The notes beneath the pieces were generated by a model that made no database searches, had not been told where the DNA came from, and saw nothing but the letters and a program-made list of their open reading frames with translations. Shown here piece by piece: positions 1 through 12,824 of a DNA stretch of 12,824 nt. Position numbers and translations under genes: made by a program. The stretch comes from a virus (Duplodnaviria; Heunggongvirae; Uroviricota; Caudoviricetes). How positions within the stretch are numbered: the first letter of the stretch is position 1; each line of letters opens with the position of its first letter. The stretch lies in the IMG/VR virus record IMGVR_UViG_2740892209_000012; one strand, 5' to 3'.

Positions 1-170
1 GTTAAGCATCCACAGGCTGGTATCTGCAACCGATTATAACGGATGCTTAACGTAATGCGTGAAGTATGGACATATTTTATCAATTAGTGTTTTTTGCCGT
101 TTCATAATGTTTCAGATTGTTCATTATGTTTTTGATTATCAACGGATTTGCTATTTTCCTTGTTTCAGCT

Positions 171-227: not shown

Positions 228-1478
228 GTGATGACCGGAATCAAAATTATGCGCAGAGCACTTAACAAACTGAGTGATACACAGCTAAGGAAAATCAACG
301 GCACACCCGCCCAAAAAACAGCCTTTCTTAATGACGGTGGAAACCTGAGCGTCAGGCATTCAACCAGCGGCCTTTTAACCTGGTATTTCACCTACAGGGC
401 CGGAACGGGAAGGGGAGCACGACCGGAACGGATTAAGCTGGGAAATTATCCTGATCTGAGTCTGAAAGCTGCCAGGGAAAAAGCGGCACAGTGTCGCGCT
501 TGGCTTGCTGAGGGGAAAAATCCACGTCATGAGATGAATTACACCGTACAGAAAGCGTTAAAGCCCGTAACGGTTGGCGATGCGCTTACCTACTGGCTTG
601 AGTCTTACGTAAAGGAAAACCGCGTGGATTATGCCGCCCTGAAAAAGCGCCTTAATAATCACGTAATACAGCACATTGGTGCTATGCCGCTGGATAAATG
701 CGAGCTACGGCACTGGCTGGCCTGTTTTGACCAGGTGGCAAAGCGAACGCCTGTTACTGCCGGATTCTTGCTACAGACGTGCAAACAGGCGCTTAAGTTC
801 TGCCGGAGGCGGCGCTATGCAATCAGCAACGTTCTTGATGATATGAGTGTGGCGGACGTTGGGAAAAAACCGGATATAAGCGAGCGTGTCTTAAGCACCA
901 AAGAACTTGGCGAATTATTGCAGGCACTGGACAAAAAAATATTTTCCCCTTACTACGTCGCACTAATCCGCCTCCTGATTGTTTTCGGATGCCGGACGGT
1001 AGAACTGAGGTTATCGGAGATCAGCGAGTGGGATTTTACCGAAATGCTCTGGACCGTGCCGAAAGAACACAGCAAAACGAAGGTGGCAATATTCCGGCCC
1101 ATACCGGAAGCAATACTGCCGTTCGTCACGCAGCTGGTGGAGCAGAACAGGCACACGGGCTTATTGCTGGGGGAAGTGAAACAGGAAACAAGCGTGTCGC
1201 AGTACGGCAGATTAGCGCACAGGAGGCTAAAACACCCTCACTGGTCACTGCATGACATCCGGCGCACCTTTACAACGATGCTGAACGATTTAGGCGTGGA
1301 TCCTCACGTCGTGGAGCAGCTTACAGGTCATCAGATGCCAGGGATGCAACGAGTCTATAACCATTCCCGTTATCTGGATGCGAAACGTGACGCGCTGGAT
1401 ATGTGGACGGAGCGGTTAGGGATACTGGCGGGAACACATGAAAACGTAACCACATTGCCAATAGCCAGAGAAATATAA
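228..1478 (+). CDS. int: Tyrosine recombinase / integrase, P4-family type
   Basis: 416-codon ORF. N-terminal arm-binding-like pattern (LNDGGNLSVR, WYFTYR, IKLGNYPDLSL..AR) and C-terminal catalytic signature (LHDIRRTF, GH......Y) typical of P4-like integrases. Begins right after the attL core. Start uncertain: GTG 228, ATG 231 or ATG 249. Confidence 0.9.
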   Translation: MMTGIKIMRRALNKLSDTQLRKINGTPAQKTAFLNDGGNLSVRHSTSGLLTWYFTYRAGTGRGARPERIKLGNYPDLSLKAAREKAAQCRAWLAEGKNPRHEMNYTVQKALKPVTVGDALTYWLESYVKENRVDYAALKKRLNNHVIQHIGAMPLDKCELRHWLACFDQVAKRTPVTAGFLLQTCKQALKFCRRRRYAISNVLDDMSVADVGKKPDISERVLSTKELGELLQALDKKIFSPYYVALIRLLIVFGCRTVELRLSEISEWDFTEMLWTVPKEHSKTKVAIFRPIPEAILPFVTQLVEQNRHTGLLLGEVKQETSVSQYGRLAHRRLKHPHWSLHDIRRTFTTMLNDLGVDPHVVEQLTGHQMPGMQRVYNHSRYLDAKRDALDMWTERLGILAGTHENVTTLPIAREI

Positions 1479-1843: not shown

Positions 1844-2032
1844 GTGTTAAGCACAGATCGCTTTATACGTGAAAAAGAATGTCAGCAACTTACAGGCCTG
1901 AGCCGCTCATGTCGGTACCGCCTGGAAAAAGCCGGACAATTCCCATCACGGCGTAAGCTGGGCGGTCGTTCCGTTGGCTGGTCTTTATCCGAAGTTTTGG
2001 CATGGAAGGACAGCTGCGAGGCAGTTCACTAA
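1844..2032 (+). CDS. alpA: AlpA/Vis-family HTH regulator (excision and transcription activator type)
   Basis: 62-aa ORF with GTG start preceded by AAGGGGGA Shine-Dalgarno; FIREKECQQLTGLSRSCRYRLEKAGQFPSRRKLGGRSVGWSLSEVLAW matches the AlpA-type small HTH pattern; position immediately downstream of int as in Gram-negative PICIs. Confidence 0.8.
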   Translation: MLSTDRFIREKECQQLTGLSRSCRYRLEKAGQFPSRRKLGGRSVGWSLSEVLAWKDSCEAVH

Positions 2033-2084: not shown

Positions 2085-3371
2085 ATGAATACTGGATATT
2101 CTCCCGAACAAGGGCGGGGCTTCGTTCGTCCTGAAAAACAGAATCTGCAAAATTTTGCCGAAATTATTCCGGTTATTTCCGGCCTTACTGGCGGGAGTGA
2201 AACCAATATTGTTAACGCCAGAGCGTTGCAGATGTTTGATGATAAAAAGGGAGTAAATTTAACTTACACCCCTGACGGCAATCAGAATATGAGCATTATC
2301 TCTGAGTCAGGTTTCTACAAACTAATAAAAACAAAAAGCGCCCCGTTGCCGGAGCGCCTTTGTGAACAATTAACCTACTGCGCAAAAAATGAATCTGAGC
2401 AGTGGGATTATATCAACCATGTGGAGAAGCGCCACAATTGCCGAATAACGGGCAAAACAAAGGCCACCCGCTACAGTGGCCCCTCGACACAAGCTACACG
2501 TTATCCCCAACGCATGAGCATTGCCAACAATGCCACATTTGCGGCTGGTGGGCAATGCAATCAGTCTGGTTCAGTTCGTTGCCATACCTGCAATGAGCGC
2601 TTTTCCCTGTACTCTTTAAGGAATTGCTCAAGGGCAAAAGCACATGGCGCGAATCTTTCTGATTCATGCTCTATCTTTCTGCGCCGTCTTTTCCGTGCCG
2701 GTGATAATGTTTTGGTCAATTCTTTATCGGTCATTGTGTTGTCCTGCATAGCAATGCGCCGTAGTTACTCACACCACGGCGCTGGTGATGGTTACTCCTG
2801 CTCTTTGGCCTTGCGGCGCTGGCGGCGTTTGATTTCGCCGCGCATGGCTGCGTTTATAAACTGTCCCGTGCTTTCGCCTTCTTCTTTCACGTTCTCCATG
2901 CCTTCAATAATTTCATGGGCAATACGTGCAGTTACAGATTGTGATTTTGCATTCTTTGGACCCGTTGCCATGTTTAACCCCTCATGTTTTTGGTGTAAGA
3001 CAATATACACGAAAAAAAAATATTTTGAAGGGTTGGCGTGTAAGACACCATTGTTTTACATTGTGTCTTACACCTTATTGATGAAAGGCACAGAAACGAC
3101 GAAACCCCGCACTGTAGGAGCAGTAACGGGGCTTCTAACCACCAACGATAGCAACAGTATCGAGGTAGCTATGAGAAATCATACCACACACCCGAAAGGG
3201 CGGGACTCGCACAACCTGAATAAATACATCTGGCGTTTTATCGCCCTGAGCACGGCACAACCGCGCGTGATTACCATTGAGGCCACCAGCGAACAGGAAG
3301 CACGCCAGCAATCTCCGGCTGGCTGCGTGATGGTATTTGCTGCCCGTATTCGTCAGGGGGTAGGCTTATGA
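2085..3371 (+). CDS. Questionable 428-codon open frame; probably not one gene. Only the N-terminal ~85 codons look protein-like (BRO-N/antirepressor-like ISESGFYKLI motif)
   Basis: No stop for 1287 nt, but the central part is Cys/Ser/Arg/Leu-rich junk-like translation, runs antisense to a well-supported small minus-strand gene (2792-2971), and reads through an AT-rich operator/promoter region (2993-3080). The 3' end coincides with the Icd-like ORF starting at 3171. Confidence 0.2.
   Translation: MNTGYSPEQGRGFVRPEKQNLQNFAEIIPVISGLTGGSETNIVNARALQMFDDKKGVNLTYTPDGNQNMSIISESGFYKLIKTKSAPLPERLCEQLTYCAKNESEQWDYINHVEKRHNCRITGKTKATRYSGPSTQATRYPQRMSIANNATFAAGGQCNQSGSVRCHTCNERFSLYSLRNCSRAKAHGANLSDSCSIFLRRLFRAGDNVLVNSLSVIVLSCIAMRRSYSHHGAGDGYSCSLALRRWRRLISPRMAAFINCPVLSPSSFTFSMPSIISWAIRAVTDCDFAFFGPVAMFNPSCFWCKTIYTKKKYFEGLACKTPLFYIVSYTLLMKGTETTKPRTVGAVTGLLTTNDSNSIEVAMRNHTTHPKGRDSHNLNKYIWRFIALSTAQPRVITIEATSEQEARQQSPAGCVMVFAARIRQGVGL
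2324..2357 (-). terminator. Candidate intrinsic terminator for leftward transcription
   Basis: Stem GCGCCCCG (2338-2345) / CGGAGCGC (2350-2357), loop TTGC; on the minus strand it is followed by TTTTTGTTTTTATT (complement of 2324-2337). Confidence 0.35.
2792..2971 (-). CDS. Small basic hypothetical protein (59 aa), candidate autoregulated regulator
   Basis: Minus-strand ATG at 2971 preceded by GAGGGG Shine-Dalgarno (6-nt spacing); protein-like K/E-rich composition (MATGPKNAKSQSVTARIAHEIIEG...KRRQRRKAKEQE); promoter-like -35 TTCAAA / -10 TATATT upstream with a GTGTAAGACA operator-like repeat overlapping the -10/start region. Confidence 0.5.
   Translation of the reverse strand: MATGPKNAKSQSVTARIAHEIIEGMENVKEEGESTGQFINAAMRGEIKRRQRRKAKEQE
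2993..3073. promoter_or_regulatory. Divergent promoter/operator region with three GTGTAAGACA half-sites
   Basis: GTGTAAGACA at 2993-3002; perfect 11-bp inverted repeat GTGTAAGACAC (3038-3048) / GTGTCTTACAC (3063-3073) with a 14-bp spacer; lies between the minus-strand small gene and the plus-strand Icd-like ORF; -35-like TTTACA at 3055-3060 on the plus strand. Confidence 0.55.
3171..3371 (+). CDS. Icd-like small protein (host cell division inhibitor-like family seen in P1/P4-type immunity regions)
   Basis: ATG 3171 preceded by GAGG (5-nt spacing); 66 aa; the YIWRFIALSTAQPRVITIEATSEQEARQQSPAGCVMVFAARIR pattern resembles recalled Icd-like proteins; stop overlaps the next start (ATGA at 3368-3371). 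Confidence 0.45.
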   Translation: MRNHTTHPKGRDSHNLNKYIWRFIALSTAQPRVITIEATSEQEARQQSPAGCVMVFAARIRQGVGL

Positions 3372-4043: not shown

Positions 4044-4343
4044 ATGAAACTTAAATATTCTGGCTTAACTGCCAGTGGCAAAACTCGCACTAAATTCATG
4101 CGCGGTGATATTTACCGCGACCAGTACGGCGGCACGGTAATGATTAAGGGCGTGGAGGAACGGCGCGTAACCTACCGTCGTGAAGGCTACGAATATGATT
4201 GCGTGATGCCTGTTTATCAGTTCGATCGTGATTTTTCTCTGGTGCAGGCCGTACCGCGTAACGTGCCCACCAGCAGGGAGAAAGCACGCGCCAATATTCA
4301 GGAAATAAAAAAGATGCTTAACGTATTCAGGGGTAAGAAATGA
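4044..4343 (+). CDS. Hypothetical basic protein (99 aa), translationally coupled to the primase gene
   Basis: ATG 4044 with GGAGA Shine-Dalgarno; stop TGA 4341-4343 overlaps the primase ATG 4340 (ATGA). Confidence 0.65.
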   Translation: MKLKYSGLTASGKTRTKFMRGDIYRDQYGGTVMIKGVEERRVTYRREGYEYDCVMPVYQFDRDFSLVQAVPRNVPTSREKARANIQEIKKMLNVFRGKK

Positions 4344-6088
4344 AACTGGCACCGAACGTAAAAAAACAACCACGCGGAATAAAACACAAAGACACAGAGG
4401 TAATTATTTTCGCGGGTAGTGATGCGTGGTCACATGCAAAACAGTGGCAGGAGCAGGACGGCCCCGCATCCGGCGATAATGTGCCGCCTGTGTGGCTTGG
4501 GCCAAATCAGCTTGCCGAACTTGATGCGCTGAAAATTGTTCCGGATGGGAAAAAGCGCGTAAGGCTGTACCAGGCCGGAGAACTGGATTTGGTGGAGACC
4601 AAAAAGATTGGTCAGAAGCTGGCGGCGGCAGATATTCAGGACGCAAATTTTTACCCCGAAGGAATGCACGTCCAGAAGTGTGAAAACTGGCGGCGCTATC
4701 TGAATGCTGAGCGTGAAAATATTGCCGCAGGGCTTACCATGCCGGAGCAGAAAAATACGCAACTGGCACAAATGGCAGACAGTGAGCGCGCGCAGCTGCT
4801 TGCCGAGCGCTTTGATGGCGTTTGTGTGCATCCTGAAAGTGAAATCGTTCACGTATGGCGCGGCGGGGTATGGTGTCCGGTCAGCACAATGGAGCTGAGC
4901 CGCGAAATGGTGGCGATCTATTCAGAGCACAGGGCCACTTTCAGCAAGCGCGTAATCAATAACGCCGTGGAAGCGTTAAAAGTTATTGCCGAACCAATGG
5001 GCGAGCCGTCCGGCTATTTGCTGCCGTTCGCCAATGGTGCGCTTGACCTGAAAACGGGGGAATTTTCCCCGCACACGCCGGAGAACTGGATCACCACGCA
5101 CAACGGCATTGAGTACACGCCACCAGCACCAGGGGAGAACATCCGCGATAACGCGCCAAACTTTCATAAATGGCTTAAGCACGCAGCCGGAAAAGACCCG
5201 CGCAAGATGATGCGTATATGTGCCGCGCTGTACATGATTATGGCGAACCGGTACGACTGGCAGATGTTTATTGAGGCCACCGGAGACGGCGGGAGCGGTA
5301 AAAGTACATTCACACACATAGCCAGCCTTCTGGCAGGGAAACAGAACACGGTAAGCGCTGAAATGACATCGCTTGATGATGCTGGTGGACGTGCGCAGGT
5401 TGTCGGGAGTCGTCTTATCGTCCTGGCTGACCAGCCGAAATATACAGGCGAAGGAACGGGCATCAAGAAAATCACGGGCGGTGACCCCGTGGAAATTAAC
5501 CCGAAATACGAAAAGCGTTTCACGGCTGTAATCAGGGCGGTGGTGCTGGCGACCAACAATAACCCGATGATATTCACCGAACGGGCCGGAGGTGTGGCAC
5601 GTCGTCGCGTGATTTTCCGTTTCGACAATATCGTCAGTGAGGCCGAAAAAGACAGGGAGCTACCGGAAAAGATCGCGGCTGAAATCCCTGTCATTATCCG
5701 CCGATTGCTGGCGAACTTTACCGACCCTGAGAAGGCACGGGCTTTACTACTGGAACAGCGTGACGGTGATGAAGCACTGGCAATAAAGCAACAGACGGAT
5801 CCGGTTATTGAGTTTTGCCAGTTCCTGAATTTTCTGGAGGAAGCGCGCGGCCTGATGATGGGGGGCGGTGGCGATTCAGTGAAGTACACGACCAGGAACA
5901 GCCTTTACCGCGTCTATCTGGCGTTTATGGCATACGCAGGCAGGAGCAAACCGCTAAACGTAAATGACTTTGGAAAGGCTATGAAGCCTGCCGCAAAAGT
6001 TTACGGACATGAATATATTACGCGGAAAGTTAAGGGGGTAACGCAGACTAACGCAATAACAACAGACGAGTGCGACGCGTTTTTATAA
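4340..6088 (+). CDS. Primase/replication initiator with D5_N-like and SF3-helicase P-loop domains (P4 alpha C-terminal type; PICI pri-rep-like)
   Basis: 582-aa ORF; FANGALDLKTGEF motif (D5_N-like), Walker A GDGGSGKST, Walker B-like RLIVLADQ; immediately followed by an iteron array. Confidence 0.9.
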   Translation: MKLAPNVKKQPRGIKHKDTEVIIFAGSDAWSHAKQWQEQDGPASGDNVPPVWLGPNQLAELDALKIVPDGKKRVRLYQAGELDLVETKKIGQKLAAADIQDANFYPEGMHVQKCENWRRYLNAERENIAAGLTMPEQKNTQLAQMADSERAQLLAERFDGVCVHPESEIVHVWRGGVWCPVSTMELSREMVAIYSEHRATFSKRVINNAVEALKVIAEPMGEPSGYLLPFANGALDLKTGEFSPHTPENWITTHNGIEYTPPAPGENIRDNAPNFHKWLKHAAGKDPRKMMRICAALYMIMANRYDWQMFIEATGDGGSGKSTFTHIASLLAGKQNTVSAEMTSLDDAGGRAQVVGSRLIVLADQPKYTGEGTGIKKITGGDPVEINPKYEKRFTAVIRAVVLATNNNPMIFTERAGGVARRRVIFRFDNIVSEAEKDRELPEKIAAEIPVIIRRLLANFTDPEKARALLLEQRDGDEALAIKQQTDPVIEFCQFLNFLEEARGLMMGGGGDSVKYTTRNSLYRVYLAFMAYAGRSKPLNVNDFGKAMKPAAKVYGHEYITRKVKGVTQTNAITTDECDAFL

Positions 6089-6650: not shown

Positions 6651-7073
6651 ATGACAGCACAGATAGCAGCTTACGGGCGGCTGGTGGACGACCCGCAGGT
6701 AAAACAGACCAGCAAGGGCACACCGATGACGCTGGCGCGTATGGCGGTCCCCCTTCCGTGCAGCCAGGCAGATGACGGAACGGCGACGATGTGGTTATCC
6801 GTCCTGGCATTTGGCAGACAGGCCGAAGCACTGGAAAGGCACCGCAAGGGTGAACTCCTGAGCGTGGCGGGTAACATGCAGATCAGCCAGTCGACTGGGC
6901 AGAACGGAGAAACGCGGCAGGGCTGGCAGGTTATCGCAGACAGTGTAATCAGTGCGCGAACGGCGCGACTGGGCGGCAAAAAAGGTCAACAGGGCCAGGC
7001 TACTGACGCGCTGAACAGGGCAAAACAACAGGCGGGGAATGATGATCCGTACGGGGATAACATACCGTTTTAA
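6651..7073 (+). CDS. Single-stranded DNA-binding protein-like (short SSB with acidic C-terminal tail)
   Basis: 140 aa; OB-fold-like N-terminus (GRLVDDPQVKQTSKG...) and C-terminal DDPYGDNIPF resembling the SSB acidic tail ending in IPF; followed by a strong terminator. Confidence 0.75.
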   Translation: MTAQIAAYGRLVDDPQVKQTSKGTPMTLARMAVPLPCSQADDGTATMWLSVLAFGRQAEALERHRKGELLSVAGNMQISQSTGQNGETRQGWQVIADSVISARTARLGGKKGQQGQATDALNRAKQQAGNDDPYGDNIPF

Positions 7074-7080
7074 GCGACGA

Positions 7081-7102
7081 GAGACAGAAGCCGGAGCAAT
7101 CC
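7081..7102 (+). terminator. Rho-independent terminator after ssb
   Basis: GCCGGA-GCAA-TCCGGC hairpin followed by TTTTTT. Confidence 0.7.
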
Positions 7103-7160
7103 GGCTTTTTTACGGGTCCTCCTGGCGGGGTGGGCCTGAACACGGGGCGGGAAGCGCGGA
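7103..7160 (+). other. Degenerate cos-like sequence (pseudo-cosQ/cosN), paralogous to the 9530-9606 region
   Basis: ACGGGTCCTCCTGG followed by GGGCGGGAAGCG (8 of 12 matches to cosN) and CGG-AAAAAAGCG; the preceding hairpin is near-identical to the one at 9530-9545. Confidence 0.35.
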
Positions 7161-7286
7161 AAAAAGCGCATTTTTGTGATTTTATCGTCATCATCATCAT
7201 GAGCGTAATTTATTGTTTTTAATTGTTTTGATGCAAAAAAGATGATGGTTGTGGTTAATTTTCGTTCGACATCTTTGCAGGCAGAT

Positions 7287-7327
7287 AAAAAAGCCCGATA
7301 AGGTCAGAGGTGGCTTATCGGGCTTTT
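7287..7327. terminator. Bidirectional-looking stem-loop (10-bp stem) flanked by A-run and T-run
   Basis: GCCCGATAAG (7293-7302) / CTTATCGGGC (7314-7323), with AAAAAA upstream and TTTT downstream. Confidence 0.45.
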
Positions 7328-7422
7328 GCATATGAGGCTTTTTGGTGCACTGACACACATGAGCGGGATCATCATTTCATAATTTGCAACACAACTCAAT
7401 ATCATTGCACAAAACGCAATCC

Positions 7423-7453
7423 TGATTATAATCAGAGCTGGATGAACATCCAG
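7423..7453. promoter_or_regulatory. Two adjacent palindromes upstream of the capsid operon (candidate operator/activator sites)
   Basis: Perfect palindrome TGATTATAATCA (7423-7434) and CTGGATG-AA-CATCCAG (7438-7453), about 35 bp upstream of the ATG at 7489. Confidence 0.35.
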
Positions 7454-7488
7454 TTATGATTTTTTAAGTCGAAGAGGAATTTCTTACT

Positions 7489-7695
7489 ATGGCTGAAGAG
7501 AAAAAAGGCGGTGTTTCGGTGTACATAAGCCCCGAAATCGTGGAGGTGCTCAAGCAGCGCCACAAAAAAAACTATGAGGCTGGCGTGGCGGCTGGACTGG
7601 ATCCGCTGATGACGCCGGAGCCGTCGATAGGTTCACTTGTACGCTCTTATTTACTTGCGGCGCTTGGGATGCATAAAAATTATGGGGGTGAATAA
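7489..7695 (+). CDS. Small hypothetical protein (68 aa), possibly ribbon-helix-helix-like, first gene of the capsid operon
   Basis: ATG 7489 with AGAGGA upstream; GVSVYISPEIVEVLKQ resembles an RHH beta-strand/helix start; stop overlaps the MCP start (TAATG). Confidence 0.55.
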   Translation: MAEEKKGGVSVYISPEIVEVLKQRHKKNYEAGVAAGLDPLMTPEPSIGSLVRSYLLAALGMHKNYGGE

Positions 7696-8750
7696 TGGCA
7701 GGCAAAGCAACGGCACTTAACACTAACCAGCTTTTCATGTACCTGAATCGCGGGGATATTGCGGATTTTAAATTCAGCCCTCTGTTTACTACGCTGTTTT
7801 TCCCGAACGTGGCGACATTCAGCACGCAAAACATCATGCTGGATACCCTGGACATTGAAGAAGTCACCATGTCGGCGTTTTGTTCGCCTATGGTGGGTAG
7901 CCAGGTTCAGCGCGATAAAGGGTACGAAACCAGCACGATTAAACCTGGCTACATGAAGCCAAAGCACGAAATCGATCCAACGAAAACCATCATGCGCATG
8001 GCTGGAGAAGATCCGGCACAGCTTAACGACCCTACCTATCGCCGTATGCGCCTGATTACTGGCAATATGCGCCGCCAGATAAACGCCATAAAAGCGCGCG
8101 TGGAATGGCTGGCGGTAAATGCGGTAACGACCGGAAAAAACATCATTGAGGGCGAAGGCATAGAGCGCTATGAAATCGACTGGAAGATACCGGAAAAAAA
8201 CATCATAGAGCAGGCCGACGGGAAAAAATGGTCAGAGCAGGACAAAGAAACCCACGATCCAATCTATGATATCGAACTATACGCCGATCAGGCTGGTTGC
8301 CCCGCAAACGTCATGATTATGGGCGCTGAGGTATGGCGAACGTTACGCAGCTTTAAAAAATTCCGTGAGCTGTACGATCTTTCCCGTGGTTCAGAATCCG
8401 CCGCCGAACTGGCCTGTAAAAACCTGGGCGAAGTGGTGAGCTTTAAAGGCTATCTTGGTGATCTGGCCCTTATCGTCTATTCCGGCAAATACACTGACAG
8501 CGATGGTACCGAAAAATATTTCCTTGAGCCTGATTTGCTGGTCCTGGGCAACACCAACAATAAAGGGCTGGTGGCCTATGGTGCGATAATGGATCAGGAA
8601 GCGGTAAGAACGGGCGCAACACAAAACATGTTTTACCCGAAAAACTGGATTGAGGACGGCGATCCGGCGATTGAGTACGTGCAGACGCACAGCGCACCGC
8701 AGCCGGTTCCGGCAGATATTCGCAAATTTGTTACCGTCAAAATTGGTTAA
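7695..8750 (+). CDS. Major capsid protein, lambda gpE-like
   Basis: 351 aa; multiple blocks align with recalled lambda E (FKFSPLF..LFF, PGYMKPKHE, EDPAQLNDPTYRRMR, WSEQDK..HDP, RSFK, LVLGNT..GL..YG, YPKNW...GDPA, SAP). Confidence 0.9.
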   Translation: MAGKATALNTNQLFMYLNRGDIADFKFSPLFTTLFFPNVATFSTQNIMLDTLDIEEVTMSAFCSPMVGSQVQRDKGYETSTIKPGYMKPKHEIDPTKTIMRMAGEDPAQLNDPTYRRMRLITGNMRRQINAIKARVEWLAVNAVTTGKNIIEGEGIERYEIDWKIPEKNIIEQADGKKWSEQDKETHDPIYDIELYADQAGCPANVMIMGAEVWRTLRSFKKFRELYDLSRGSESAAELACKNLGEVVSFKGYLGDLALIVYSGKYTDSDGTEKYFLEPDLLVLGNTNNKGLVAYGAIMDQEAVRTGATQNMFYPKNWIEDGDPAIEYVQTHSAPQPVPADIRKFVTVKIG

Positions 8751-8761
8751 CGGGGGATTCT

Positions 8762-9097
8762 ATGGACACTCCATACATTGAGTTATTTGCAGGCAGTCAG
8801 CAGGTCGCCACGACGCTGGTACATTTTGCCGCTGATGCTGGCGTTATTCAGGAATTTACCCCGCTGATGCTGGCGGACAATGGCGAGTTTAAGCCGTGGG
8901 ATGGTAAGGAATCTGGCAAGGCTGTTTATCTGACCTCGTACCCTGTGGACACGTCAAAGCAGAAATCAGCACAGTGTTACAAGACGGGGATATTCAATAT
9001 TGCCGCCGTTAACTGGCCTGAGAGCGTCGACACCGATGCGAAAAAATGCGCCGCCTTTGCGGGTTCCGGCGTATCCGTTCAGCCGCTGGCCCGATAA
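8762..9097 (+). CDS. Head decoration protein, lambda gpD-like
   Basis: 111 aa; C-terminal YKTGIFNIAAVNWPESVDTDAKKCAAFAGSGVSVQ resembles lambda D ([34 protein letters not shown]); GGGGGA Shine-Dalgarno; lies downstream of the E-like gene (order reversed relative to lambda). Confidence 0.8.
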   Translation: MDTPYIELFAGSQQVATTLVHFAADAGVIQEFTPLMLADNGEFKPWDGKESGKAVYLTSYPVDTSKQKSAQCYKTGIFNIAAVNWPESVDTDAKKCAAFAGSGVSVQPLAR

Positions 9098-9109
9098 GCA
9101 GGGGGAACG

Positions 9110-9523
9110 ATGGCAACGAATGAAAGCATCATGACGCTACCGCTGGCGAGTAAATTTAAAGCCGAAGCGCGGGCAATGGCTGACAGAGGTTTATCAACCT
9201 ATGAGGCCGTATATCAACTAAACAAACTGGAAGAGCAGGACAAGCCGCGCGCTGATGCGATTATGGCGCTTCATGAGCATAAAGACTATCAGCCGCTGTT
9301 GCGTGCAATGGCAAACGTGCCTTGTATCGATGTTGGTACGGCTAAAAGCATCCTTAGCATGACCATAGAGCAGGAGCGCCCAAAGGTTGCACCAGAGCTT
9401 ACCGCAGCCTTTGAAAACTTTATGGACATGCACAGCCCGCAAGCCGTATCAGCTGGCATGGCATACGATGGCAGAAACCAGGGCGATGACGGCGACATCG
9501 ATCGCATACTGAAAACCATCTGA
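9110..9523 (+). CDS. Hypothetical protein (137 aa), last gene of the capsid operon
   Basis: ATG 9110 with AGGGGGAA Shine-Dalgarno; protein-like composition; followed by a strong terminator. No family recognised. Confidence 0.7.
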   Translation: MATNESIMTLPLASKFKAEARAMADRGLSTYEAVYQLNKLEEQDKPRADAIMALHEHKDYQPLLRAMANVPCIDVGTAKSILSMTIEQERPKVAPELTAAFENFMDMHSPQAVSAGMAYDGRNQGDDGDIDRILKTI

Positions 9524-9529
9524 GACAAG

Positions 9530-9552
9530 GCCGGAGAAATCCGGCTTTTTTT
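9530..9552 (+). terminator. Rho-independent terminator immediately upstream of cos
   Basis: GCCGGA-GAAA-TCCGGC hairpin followed by TTTTTTT. Confidence 0.7.
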
Positions 9553-9640
9553 ACGGGTCCTTTCCGGCATATGGACCCGTTACGGGGCGGCGACCTCGCG
9601 GTTTTTCGCTATTTATGAGCCTTTTCAGGGGGGTGGTGGT
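9553..9640 (+). other. Lambda-type cohesive end site (cosQ-cosN-proximal cosB), forward orientation
   Basis: ACGGGTCCTTTCCGG (cosQ-like, matches recalled lambda right end), GTTACG then GGGCGGCGACCT (9585-9596, identical to the lambda 12-nt cohesive end), then CGCGGTTTTTCGCTATTTATGA (near-identical to the lambda left end start); located about 135 bp upstream of the Nu1-like gene. Confidence 0.8.
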
Positions 9641-9729
9641 GGTTTTGTTGTTTGCTCTATCTTTATGAATGAAAAGGGAAAGATGCAAACAATACACCAA
9701 CCTGAAGCAGTAATTAAGTTGGTGTATTA

Positions 9730-10272
9730 ATGAAATCGCACCTGATGAACAAAAAAAACATGGCGAAAAGCTGCCGTGTAAGTGCGACAGCGTTCGACAA
9801 GTGGGGAGTGACTCCCGTTGAACGTAAAGGCCGTGAGGCGTTTTACGATGTTGCCAGCGTGATAGACAATAGGGTTAACAATGCAATTAGCCAGCTTACA
9901 AACGACAAAGGCGATATTGATGATGATGAACTCTTACGAGTCAGGATCAGATTACTGACAGCACAGGCGGAGGCGCAGGAACTTAAAAACGAGCGCGATC
10001 GCGGTGACGTGATTGATACTGAGTTTTGCCTGTACGCGCTTTCAAAGCTGGCGAGTCAGATTTCATCAATCATGGACAGCCTCCCGCTTACTATGCAAAG
10101 GAGCTTCCCACAGATTACCCCCGCCATGCTGGATAGGCTTAAAAGGGAAGTGGTTAAAGCCTGTAATGCCAGTGCCAGAGTTGCCGACAACCTCCCACAG
10201 ATACTGGCTGATTACTTGAAAGAAACAACCGGAAACGTACCGGAAAAGTTGCTACAGAAGAAAGGCGAGTAA
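9730..10272 (+). CDS. Terminase small subunit, lambda Nu1-like
   Basis: 180 aa; LTAQAEAQELKNERDRGDVIDTEFCLYALSKLASQISSIMDSLPLTMQRSFPQ aligns with recalled lambda Nu1 (LTRAQADAQELKNARDSAEVVETAFCTFVLSRIAGEIASILDGLPLSVQRRFPE); the N-terminal NKK... region matches the Nu1 N-terminus; start may be ATG 9730 or ATG 9745. Confidence 0.85.
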   Translation: MKSHLMNKKNMAKSCRVSATAFDKWGVTPVERKGREAFYDVASVIDNRVNNAISQLTNDKGDIDDDELLRVRIRLLTAQAEAQELKNERDRGDVIDTEFCLYALSKLASQISSIMDSLPLTMQRSFPQITPAMLDRLKREVVKACNASARVADNLPQILADYLKETTGNVPEKLLQKKGE

Positions 10273-10274
10273 CA

Positions 10275-10500
10275 GACGCGCAATTATTGAACAAAACTGA
10301 GAAACGACATGAAAGCGTCATAAATCGCCATTTTAGATGATTACCGTGTCGTTTCTTTTTATTGTGTATCTATTTAAAAACAAATAGTTATGTTCGAGAA
10401 GTACCGACATGCTTTTTCCAGAAAAATTTTCATAAACAGATAAAAACCGCGAGGTCGCCGCCCCGTAACGGGCCATAATTCCAGGAAGGACCCGACGACA
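10275..10500 (-). other. Second lambda-type cos site in inverted orientation with extended lambda-like cosB
   Basis: The reverse complement reads cosQ-like CGGGTCCTTCCTGG, then GTTACG-GGGCGGCGACCT-CGCGGTTTTT (cosN on plus strand at 10452-10463), then TTTATGAAAATTTTT, CATAACTATTTGTTTTTAAATAGATA, AAAAAGAAACGACACGG and GTCGTTTCTCAGTTTTG, mirroring recalled lambda cosB blocks (R3/R2/R1 region). It shares a 36-bp inverted repeat with cos1 (9571-9606 vs 10442-10477, 1 mismatch). Confidence 0.7.
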
Positions 10501-10527
10501 CCAGACTATCAGAACGATGGGGGCACA

Positions 10528-10809
10528 ATGACAGAAGCCGAAATACTGCGATTAATCCGCCGCGTTGCCGGAATCAGCCAGCAGGCCGACGAACAGACCA
10601 CGCAGCCGGACAGCGTGACCGCCGAAAATTATGTTCGTGTGGTTGCTGAGGTGATTCGCCGTAATGGTATCCAGCTTAATGATGTGGATATGCGCAACAT
10701 ACGGATCCGCGTTCTTGAAATGCTGGCCTACAATCGCCGCGTGGCACTGTATCGGGAAACGGAGAAAATTACGTACCACTGGAAGAAGCCGGAGCGGTTG
10801 CGGCGGTAA
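10528..10809 (+). CDS. Hypothetical protein (93 aa)
   Basis: ATG 10528 with GGGGG Shine-Dalgarno; protein-like composition; starts 28 bp beyond the cos2 cosQ-like end. No family recognised. Confidence 0.6.
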   Translation: MTEAEILRLIRRVAGISQQADEQTTQPDSVTAENYVRVVAEVIRRNGIQLNDVDMRNIRIRVLEMLAYNRRVALYRETEKITYHWKKPERLRR

Positions 10810-10810
10810 C

Positions 10811-10977
10811 TGGTTGATATTTTCGAAATTCGCCAGCGGCGAACATCGGGGAAACCAGCCTAACCCGTTGATATTTTCGGGAACCTCAAATTGAAGAGGT
10901 CGGAAACATAACCCGTCATATTCTGGATGCTGATAATTACCACGCAGCCCATTAAGGCCTAACCCGTTGATTCTTCC
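10811..10977. repeat. Four direct repeats of a TAACCCGTTGATATTTTCGG-like unit at roughly 50-bp spacing (candidate integrase arm-type sites)
   Basis: Copies at 10811-10825 (partial), 10859-10880, 10907-10926 and 10957-10977, in the noncoding arm adjacent to attR. Confidence 0.45.
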
Positions 10978-11225
10978 ACAATCCCCCATTGGGGGAGGCT
11001 GGGCGGCCTGCTGTGGGCTTTTCCACCATTGGTGGAAAGGCGCACATCTGGATCATCATTACGGTGATCAAGGGTATGTAAAACCCACCAGCCTGATTGA
11101 CATTTAACCGGAAAAAAGCCAGGTAGCCCCGTTATGGGGATCCCCATATCGACATTAACGCCCCTCATGAATTGGCGCGCTTCCCCCTGGAAAGATGACC
11201 CGCCTGTATATTTCTTGTGTCTATT

Positions 11226-11282
11226 TGTTCCACGTTGTTTCATACAGTGCAACGATCGGTGTAGTTAATGGTGTAGTCAATT
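11226..11282. repeat. attR: right copy of attachment-site direct repeat
   Basis: 11247-11282 matches 192-227 (35 of 36); the upstream block 11226-11238 matches 171-183. Confidence 0.75.
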
Positions 11283-11363
11283 TGCGATTTTTAGCACTTT
11301 TTGCAGTGCAAATCATTTAATTAAATCAATGGCTTGCCTTGATGTAGTGATAAAAGGACATAT

Positions 11364-12824
11364 TTATTCATCTTTCGGCGCAGAATGCTGGCGACCAAAA
11401 ATCACCTCCATCCGCGCACCGCCCAGCATGCTCTCTCCGGCGACGATTTTACCCTCATATTGCTCGGTGATTTCGCGGGCTACCGCCAGCCCCACACCTT
11501 GCCCAGGGCGTAAAGTATCAACCCGTTGACCACGGTCGAAAATGACCTCTCGCTTGCTTAATGGAATACCGGGGCCATCATCCTCGACCACAATATAGAG
11601 ATGCTCGTCGGTTTGCCTTGCAGAAATTTCGACAAACTCGAGGCAATATTTACAGGCGTTATCCAGCACGTTGCCCATCACTTCGACAAAATCGTTCTGC
11701 TCACCAACAAAGCTGATTTCTGGCGAGATATCGAGAGAGATATTGACCCCTTTGCGTTGATACACTTTGTTCAGCGCCGAGGTGAGATTGTCCAACAGTG
11801 GCGCGACCGGATGCAGCTCGCGGCTAAGCAATGTCCCGCCGCGCATACTGGCACGATGCAGGTAGTAGCCAATTTGCTGTGAAATGCGGCTGATTTGCTC
11901 CAGCATTACCGGCTCAGCATCACTGACGCTCATCTTCTCACTACGCAGAGAACGCAGCGTACTTTGCAGCACCGCCAGTGGCGTTTTCAGACTATGGGTC
12001 AGGTCGGTGAGCGTTGTACGATATTTGTCGTAACGTTCGCGTTCACTTTTTAACAGTCGGTTCAGGTTTCGTACCAGACTGGTCAGTTCTCGCGTTGTGG
12101 CTGGATTGAGCAATTCACGGTTATGTTCTTCCAGTTCGCGGACTTCTTTTGCCAGGGCTTCGATGGGGCGTAAACTCCACCAGGCGGCGACCCACAGCAG
12201 CGGGATCACTAACAGCAGATTGGCTGAGAGCACATAGATAAACCAGCTCCAGACCATATAGGAACTTTTTAGCTCCACCGGAATGGTATCCACCACCACA
12301 ATGGTTAACTTTGGCATCCGCGATGTTGCCGGGTAGACGTTTACCGCCACCGAGTGGGTCATCTCCGCGTCGTCATCATCTTCCCGCACTTCCTGCAACT
12401 GTTGCTGTATCGAATGATCTCCACTCAGCAAGAGGCTGGTATCGTTAACATCCGCTTCAATTTCATGAAAACCATTCGATTTCAGCCAGTCAGGCTGGAT
12501 CATCTTCATCAGCCAGGGCACGTCACGTTGCGCCCATAAAAGCTGCCCGTTCTCATCATAAATTAGTGTCATCGTGGGGCTTTGCTTGTCGATATTTTCG
12601 GGTAACTCGACATGCAACTTATTGTTTTCCCACTTCGCAAGGGTATAGAACAGATTGCTCTCGCCACGTAACAGCCGAAACGTGGTTTTATCGAAACTGA
12701 CGCTATAACCGATCAGCGCAACCATTCCGTAGGCAAGCGAAAGCACCAATACTACTGCTGCCGTTGCTAACAGAAAACGTACCCGCAGCGAGAGCGGGAA
12801 AAAAAGATGCAGTAATTTTTTCAT
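11364..12824 (-). CDS. phoQ: Sensor histidine kinase PhoQ (PhoP/PhoQ two-component system), complete
   Basis: 486-aa product matching recalled E. coli PhoQ essentially throughout: N-terminal transmembrane segment, periplasmic acidic patch [11 protein letters not shown], second transmembrane segment, H-box [15 protein letters not shown]-binding boxes DDGPGIP and [12 protein letters not shown]; start codon at the window edge (12822-12824). Confidence 0.97.

Follow-up and report, generated by a model that had tools for sequence, protein, structure and literature searches.

A probable EcCICFT073-family phage-inducible island of Escherichia coli with lambda-type cos sites flanking a small terminase gene

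The 12,824 nt stretch recorded as virus sequence IMGVR_UViG_2740892209_000012 (Caudoviricetes), here called the window, contains an island of 11.3 kb that is integrated between roxA (ycfD) and phoQ, downstream of the latter, in an Escherichia coli chromosome, as found by comparison with the empty site in strain K-12. All genes of the island are on the plus strand. Two cohesive-end (cos) sites of opposite orientation enclose a gene for a small terminase subunit (TerS), and the element with which the island is compared throughout is EcCICFT073, a phage-inducible chromosomal island (PICI). The features in this part of the window are the following.

9555-9625, plus strand: core of cos1, with the cosQ-like sequence GGGTCCTTTCCGG at 9555-9567, cosN at 9585-9596 and a proximal I2/R4-like segment up to 9625
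9626-9729, plus strand: cosB1, with R-like boxes at 9638-9655 (direct), 9685-9702 (inverted) and 9718-9728 (direct) and the inverted repeats I4 and I5
9730-10272, plus strand: full-length Nu1-family TerS of 180 amino acids (aa), between the two cos sites and at the position of rppA in EcCICFT073
10291-10416, minus strand: cosB2, with R3 at 10396-10411, an AT-rich I1-like spacer, R2 at about 10347-10365 and R1 at about 10291-10309
10417-10494, minus strand: core of cos2, with cosN at 10452-10463 and the cosQ-like sequence GGGTCCTTCCTGG at 10481-10493

From position 9553 the first cos site reads ACGGGTCCTTTCCGGCATATGGACCCGTTACG, GGGCGGCGACCT and CGCGGTTTTTCGCTATTTATGAG in immediate succession, continuing to 9640. 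The middle element is the 12 nt cosN of lambda, which occurs exactly at 9585-9596 on the plus strand and a second time, again exactly, at 10452-10463 on the minus strand. Such matches are not expected by chance, as the window has two while 200 dinucleotide-preserving shuffles gave none. An earlier sequence-only reading of this DNA had announced a lambda-type 12 nt cohesive end, which is confirmed at 12 of 12 positions. Its further statement, that the surroundings match lambda almost base for base, holds for cosN, the cosQ core and the proximal segment but is somewhat overstated for the whole span: in an ungapped comparison with lambda (represented by a DE3 record with annotated cos), 68 of the 88 positions in 9553-9640 are identical. 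On the cosQ side the figure is 24/32, with the core GGGTCCTTTCCGG exact, and from bp +13 to +36 it is 21/24. Beyond +37 only 43 of 109 positions agree (39%), so that cos1 has no lambda cosB.

The cosQ side of cos1 is nearer to that of phage PhiR5_1 (31/32). Upstream of cosN, both cos1 and cos2 carry GGGTCC at the spacing seen in lambda, 21 and PhiR5_1. Phage cos regions should align to this DNA if the earlier reading is right, and they do: a BLASTN search of 50,697 phage records matched lambda-type cos regions in 87 of them, mostly at 80-90% identity and with E-values down to 1e-23.

Comparison of the window with CFT073 by BLASTN gave 96% identity over 7287-9625 and 99.3% over 10417-11454, with nothing in between. 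As the homology stops at 9625 and resumes at 10417, inside each of the cos cores, 9626-10416 is a replaced cassette. The cores themselves form a 72 nt inverted repeat (I1; 9554-9625 and 10423-10494, 82% complementary). In EcCICFT073 the cassette consists of a cosB of its own and rppA (144 aa); the unrelated cassette of the island holds an N15-like cosB1, the full-length TerS and a phage 21-like cosB2. Apart from the cassette and from a short variable stretch that follows alpA, the two elements are 89-99% identical at the nucleotide level. They share the att site and its core, lambda-type cosQ and cosN, the lack of a large terminase subunit (TerL) and the gene order (int, alpA, DUF4222, primase, ssb, homologues of lambda E and D, cos1, specificity gene, inverted cos2, 93 aa open reading frame). 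In Pfam and PHROGs scans, none of the open reading frames (ORFs) of the window had a domain of a TerL, portal, protease, tail or lysis protein, and the earlier claim that a large terminase is absent was thus correct.

Packaging of EcCICFT073, the model PICI of Gram-negative bacteria, has been studied experimentally. A lambdoid helper induces the element, which replicates as concatemers and is transferred at high frequency. It has two cos sites with a cosQ and cosN similar to the lambda and phi80 counterparts, but no phage cosB could be identified in them. Lambda, phi80 and CFT073 prophage 4, its validated natural helper, package it through cos1 by means of the phage terminase (PMC6092414, PMC6739421). 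Both cos1 and the phage terS are needed for transfer by lambda and phi80, and all of the packaged DNA is phage-sized. The gene for RppA (c1503) comes just behind cos1; by binding to the TerS of the phage, RppA diverts it to the cosB of the PICI. Rpp proteins have 139-154 aa and a winged helix-turn-helix (wHTH), reportedly lack some 30-40 C-terminal residues compared to lambda-like TerS, and are proposed to be without the TerL-binding domain (for Rpp-type Gram-negative cos PICIs see Fillol-Salom 2018, PMC6092414, and 2019, PMC6739421; Murialdo & Feiss 2022, PMC9026076).

Because the island is collinear with EcCICFT073, and three phages package the latter through cos1, the view of the island as a satellite without TerL is right. 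The earlier proposal of a cos satellite that relies on the TerL of a lambdoid helper is supported by this kinship, but it overlooked that the island has its own TerS, two convergent cos sites and a cosB that is not that of lambda. The full account that we favour, with a probability of about 0.8, is that of an EcCICFT073-family PICI with a lambda-type cos and no TerL, belonging to a TerS subtype. Lambda-type cos sites and packaging by lambdoid helpers are already established for this family, and the TerS subtype is already catalogued, TerS-encoding E. coli PICIs having been listed in 2018 for strains IHE3034 and 18098 (PMC6092414). An Rpp protein marks the Rpp subtype and not the PICI family as a whole; in the island its slot is taken by the 180 aa TerS. 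One catalogued element of this subtype is EcCIIHE3034, whose TerS (WP_000835278.1, an accession also annotated in the related island L001 and in Nissle 1917) lies in the same arrangement, with cos1 and cos2 pointing towards terS from either side, and whose cosB2 is identical over the 190 nt compared. It differs from the island in its att site, which is cspD-clpS.

TerS is assigned to the Nu1 family: it scores 83 bits against PF07471 (cut-off 30; residues 33-148), matches phrog_57 at 3e-53 (residues 1-174) and aligns over its full length with Nu1, gp1 of phage 21 and gp1 of N15. Its gene evolves under purifying selection, the ratio of nonsynonymous to synonymous substitution rates (dN/dS) being 0.12-0.24. 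The relationships of its parts differ widely. The DNA-binding domain (residues 1-46) is 58% identical to that of N15 gp1, with which it shares the pattern AFDKWGV..PVE.KGRE, where AFDKWGV is a stretch of the recognition helix, and a shortened linker, compared to about 30% for lambda, 21 and PhiR5_1; it is 76-78% identical to that of satellite TerS proteins from Enterobacter and Citrobacter. The core (71-130) is 65% identical to PhiR5_1 Nu1. Over the last 40 residues PhiR5_1 Nu1 reaches 45% and all others 25-27%, including the satellite TerS of the other genera, and for the C-terminal half as a whole PhiR5_1 is the best match among deposited phages (58%). A scan of genome contigs with the TerS protein yielded no confirmed relative, the peptide patterns that were used being probably over-specific.

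The cosB1 segment that precedes terS carries three N15-like boxes with lambda-like spacing, laid out as R3, inverted R2 and R1. The box sequence GGTTTTGTTGTT resembles R3 of N15, GAGGTTGTTGTT (N15 bp 48-59). BLAST detected no similarity of cosB1 to the cosB of any deposited phage, and no convincing copy of an N15-style remote rR2 was found inside the island terS. Throughout the TerS-type islands cosB1 is constant, and its blocks are kept even in the Enterobacter and Citrobacter relatives, in which TerS identity drops to 57-58%. The Citrobacter loci L013-L015 (about 6820-7000) have a cosN altered to GAGGCGGCAGCGTCGC but retain the cosB1 blocks GGTGGTGGTGTTGTTGTT and CAATACACCCAC, which suggests that cosN follows the helper while cosB1 remains tied to the TerS of the satellite. 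At the place of R3, the TerS-type cosB1 has a (GGT)n run (window 9632-9647); this trinucleotide repeat recurs, oppositely oriented, in ACCACCACC, the Rpp site proposed for cos1 of EcCICFT073 (bp 55-63).

By sequence comparison, the island TerS is a mosaic that combines an N15-type DNA-binding domain with a C-terminal half nearest to lambdoid Nu1. The pattern of conservation fits a division of labour in which the DNA-binding domain and cosB1 would be conserved with the satellite, and the C-terminus and cosN would vary.

By analogy with EcCICFT073, a lambdoid helper would induce the island, which would be replicated by its own primase, and the helper TerL would cut the resulting concatemers at cosN and package them. 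The N15-type winged-helix domain of TerS would bind the N15-like R boxes in cosB1, and its lambdoid-type C-terminal half would recruit the helper TerL. Packaging would then proceed rightwards from cos1, in the way in which the TerS of Staphylococcus aureus pathogenicity islands (SaPIs) redirects the helper TerL, here in a cos system. The oppositely directed cos2 would be an entry that a helper terminase of phage 21 specificity could use with no protein from the island. Four island units amount to 45.2 kb, which fits a lambda-sized head.

A different role for TerS would be that of an Rpp protein: it would form mixed oligomers with the helper Nu1 by way of the conserved central region, block packaging of the helper and redirect the mixed complex to cosB1, the helper TerS still being needed. 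TerS sits exactly in the rppA slot of the cassette, the 65% identity of its core to a lambdoid Nu1 makes hetero-oligomers plausible, and EcCICFT073 strictly needs the phage TerS. On the other hand, TerS has no similarity to RppA (BLASTP E = 1.4, 11% identity in the alignment), and unlike the shorter Rpp proteins it keeps a full-length Nu1-like C-terminal half. We consider an Rpp-like mode rather doubtful, although it survives better than the other alternatives.

The second cos site converges on terS from the other side. Its cosB2 is complete, with the layout R3-I1-R2-R1, and extends leftwards to the terS stop codon. R3 (CATGTCGGTACTTCTC) agrees with R3 of phage 21 at 15 of 16 positions, and the first 76 nt past cosN are 88% identical to phage 21; R2 and R1 are an inverted pair (inverted repeat I2) and PhiR5_1-like. 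The segment thus has in common with phage 21, and with CFT073 prophage 4, its cosN, the proximal segment, R3 and the overall layout, but unlike phage 21 it is inverted relative to the island genes, has no terS start after it and carries R2 and R1 boxes nearer to PhiR5_1. Prophage 4 has a TerS 100% identical to that of phage 21 and an identical cos over the aligned stretch, from cosQ to the terS start.

The inverted cos pair is kept in islands at three chromosomal att sites. Between islands the R boxes of cos2 change as triplets, with ATGTCG in the window, Nissle 1917 and IHE3034, CAGATCC in L001 and O157:H7, and ATGTCCGG in CFT073. This concerted change argues for a cognate TerS, other than that of the island, which reads cosB2 now or did so until recently; the differing box types of L001 on the one hand and Nissle 1917 and IHE3034 on the other coexist with the same TerS accession. 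In cos2 of L001 (13640-13860) and of O157:H7 (L006), all three R boxes are TCAGATCC instead of CATGTCG, another apparent specificity, for which the only phage match is a weak one to SerU-LTIIb (72%). The cos2 of CFT073 (L004, 28140-28300), described in the literature as having no identifiable phage cosB, contains three copies of a ATGTCCGG/CCGGACAT motif in an R3/R2/R1-like arrangement.

We tentatively propose, while giving it less than even odds, that the two cos sites are working entries of different specificity that flank an exchangeable cassette. Cos1 would be used via the mosaic TerS, and cos2 by the phage 21-type helper terminase itself; recombination within the shared cos cores would swap cassettes of the TerS and Rpp types from island to island, and cosB2 types between islands and phages. 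Two further ideas were rejected. That cos2 is always helper-like does not hold as a rule, since CFT073 has a cos2 whose cosB bears no close resemblance to the prophage 4 cosB, and lateral transduction of PICIs was discarded as an explanation of the inverted pair, as the paper in question covers pac-type SaPIs only.

It could also be argued that cos2 is the main packaging entry, used by the helper terminase acting on cosB2, and that TerS and cosB1 serve mainly in interference or are redundant. The complete cosB2 with its phage 21-like R3, the covariation of the R boxes as sets, which suggests selection, and the phage 21 specificity of the natural helper of the family all point in this direction. 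However, transfer of EcCICFT073 requires cos1 and not cos2, relatives embedded in prophages as well as L017 have kept cos1 and terS and have no cos2, and both cosB1 and the DNA-binding domain of TerS are conserved across genera. We regard this alternative as unlikely.

Several points weigh against the account that we favour, that of a PICI of the TerS subtype with its own small terminase, and some of them concern cos2 in particular. TerS has a C-terminal half no more than 58% identical to that of any deposited phage Nu1. The AlphaFold model of TerS shows the order helix-helix-strand-strand-helix but is of low confidence (mean predicted local distance difference test score, pLDDT, 54); a Foldseek search of the PDB with it returned only non-significant matches of the MerR wHTH type, and a PDB sequence search recovered neither RppC nor the Nu1 DNA-binding domain. 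EcCIIHE3034 and EcCI18098 showed no high-frequency transfer after mitomycin C with their resident prophages (PMC6092414), and in the literature we found no helper, description of cos or packaging mechanism for TerS-type E. coli PICIs. An N15-type terminase has been reported to package lambda DNA too, so that an island TerS of N15 type need not exclude the helper genome. As to the second site, CFT073 cos2 has a cosB not closely similar to the one in its own helper, prophage 4, cos2 is non-essential for transfer of EcCICFT073 by lambda or phi80, and it is absent from L017 and from the prophage-embedded relatives (L010-L012 of Enterobacter and L016 of E. coli). It may thus be dispensable or a relic of recombination.

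Among systems outside the family, the cos-gene 1 module of N15 (and of the 'Monarch' group; Feiss 2015, PMC4669245) is close to cos1, the R box GTTGTTGTT being found at a similar distance from cosN in both. N15 has a simple cosB, consisting of R3 and the remote rR2, whereas cosB1 of the island has three R-like boxes; the N15 cosN, GGGCGGCGTCCG, differs at 3 of 12 positions from the lambda cosN of the island, and TerS has a C-terminal half that is not N15-like (27% over the last 40 aa). SaPIs embody a like concept, in that a satellite small terminase pairs with the helper TerL and redirects it to the satellite site, but their packaging is headful (pac) and their TerS belongs to an unrelated family, while the island is of the cos type and has a Nu1-family protein. 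Capsid-forming PICIs (cf-PICIs) encode capsid-related proteins and TerS, as the island does. They reportedly encode all capsid and packaging proteins and borrow tails only; the island lacks TerL, portal, protease and head-tail connectors. P4-like satellites are similar only in the types of integrase, AlpA and primase, the cos of P4 being P2-type and that of the island lambda-type.

The TerS-type cassette is common. At a coverage of at least 80% it occurs in 595 of 5426 complete E. coli genomes, compared to 53 genomes for the RppA-type that has been studied. Nissle 1917 has a cassette 100% identical to that of the window in an island that adjoins a tRNA-Pro gene, and in O157:H7, where the site is again roxA-phoQ, the cassette is 97% identical over the 86% that matches. 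In the same genome set the phoQ end of the window is matched by all 5426, and at least 80% of the window by 41. Relatives with a major capsid protein, decoration protein, cos1 and TerS were also seen within the late genes (capsid E, portal) of lambdoid prophages, in L010-L012 (Enterobacter) and L016 (E. coli 22AR0322); the L010 relative has a TIR-domain gene after alpA.

Islands of this kind carry defence genes and virulence regulators (rdgR, perC) from strain to strain; the rdgR and perC cargo of PICIs is listed in the supplement of the 2018 paper (PMC6092414). The sequence predicts a pair of N15-type TerS and cosB1, a cos2 of phage 21 type, a helper TerL like that of PhiR5_1 or PhiR12, and exchange of cassettes at the cos cores. 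If true, entries of dual specificity would widen the range of helpers, and the dual-specificity and cassette interpretation would bear on two questions of the 2019 paper (PMC6739421), namely the reason for a second cos site and the origin of Rpp.

The remaining features of the island and its borders are listed below.

68-77, plus strand: attL core GGACATATTT, left island boundary, its exact position taken from the alignment with the empty K-12 roxA-phoQ site
228-1478, plus strand: tyrosine integrase (Pfam Arm-DNA-bind_3, 1e-18; Phage_integrase, 5.6e-17)
1844-2032, plus strand: AlpA regulator/excisionase (Pfam PF05930, 3e-18)
2085-3371, plus strand: 428 aa BRO-N/Ant-like protein (phrog_6196)
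4044-4343, plus strand: DUF4222 protein (Pfam), replication module
4340-6088, plus strand: D5/P4-type primase (Pfam D5_N, DUF5906, Pox_D5), replication module
6651-7073, plus strand: single-stranded DNA-binding protein (SSB; Pfam SSB), replication module
7695-8750, plus strand: major capsid protein homologue of the lambda gpE family, equivalent to c1499 (PF03864, 5.9e-52; 44% identity to gpE)
8762-9097, plus strand: head decoration protein homologue of the gpD family, equivalent to c1500 (PF02924, 2.5e-17; 36% identity to gpD)
9110-9523, plus strand: 137 aa protein (phrog_1999), with a weak PHROGs match to the C-terminus of a head maturation protease/scaffold
9530-9552, plus strand: terminator-like hairpin with T-run directly before cosQ, with a second copy at 7090-7111
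10528-10809, plus strand: 93 aa ORF conserved in PICIs (PHROGs, phrog_1561)
11356-11365, plus strand: attR core GGACATATTT, right island boundary
11364-12824, minus strand: phoQ, next to attR

The capsid-related genes raise the possibility that the island builds small capsids of its own from the gpE- and gpD-like proteins and packages monomers of 11.3 kb, the helper supplying only portal, protease, TerL and tails. Capsid, decoration and possibly scaffold-like genes do lie directly upstream of cos1, and Pasteurella multocida PICIs with a capsid homologue make small capsids. Against this, the packaged DNA of EcCICFT073 is all phage-sized and no phenotype was found for c1499 or c1500: single deletions left interference intact and still gave transductants. 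Formation of small capsids by the island is accordingly quite improbable. The 137 aa ORF may be a Nu3-like scaffold, as its weak PHROGs match suggested, but BLASTP found no significant similarity to lambda gpC; nor has it a Pfam match. The gene between the decoration gene and cos1 comes in two unrelated versions, this phrog_1999 protein in the window and a 127 aa AlpA-like helix-turn-helix protein in L010, L013 and L016. No match to psu, sid or delta was found among the window ORFs in the Pfam and PHROGs scans.

It is extremely unlikely that the island is a decayed lambdoid prophage with fossil cos sites, since, although its late genes are few (E, D and Nu1 homologues) and rearranged relative to lambda and a degenerate cos copy is present, the compact int-alpA-primase-ssb organisation recurs with intact ORFs within genes of prophages as well as at roxA-phoQ, next to tRNA-Pro and at cspD-clpS, each strand carries an exact cosN, purifying selection acts on terS and the sister element EcCICFT073 is experimentally mobile.

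The degenerate copy, a third cos-like sequence at 7104-7180 (plus strand), follows directly after the terminator of the SSB gene and was found through the direct repeats D6 and D14. It consists of a cosQ-like GGGTCCTCCTGG and a cosN-like GGGCGGGAAGCG with a 2 nt gap, and (TCA)4 takes the place of the (GGT)n of cos1. Four related islands share the copy at 99% conservation, and CFT073 lacks it; it is probably a relic, and the earlier reading had missed it too.

The att core GGACATATTT is the one published for EcCICFT073, and its two copies, 11.3 kb apart, give the island a size within the roughly 10-15 kb of Gram-negative cos PICIs. A 76 nt direct repeat (152-227 and 11207-11282) had been considered as att and was rejected, as the empty K-12 site places the core further out. 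Part of this repeat, which is 80% conserved, are two near-identical direct repeats of 36 nt (192-227 and 11247-11282), situated just inward of both att cores; they may be arm-type binding sites of the integrase.

The flank that contains the 93 aa ORF is 99% identical to CFT073, and WP_000133413.1 is annotated there in both CFT073 and L001; the ORF is possibly the rdgR gene reported for such islands. The 428 aa ORF lies in the variable zone after alpA and has a BRO-N/anti-repressor-like N-terminus and a repressor-like C-terminus. The zone is 96.6% identical to CFT073 in its DNA, yet other small genes are annotated at the position of this ORF in L001.

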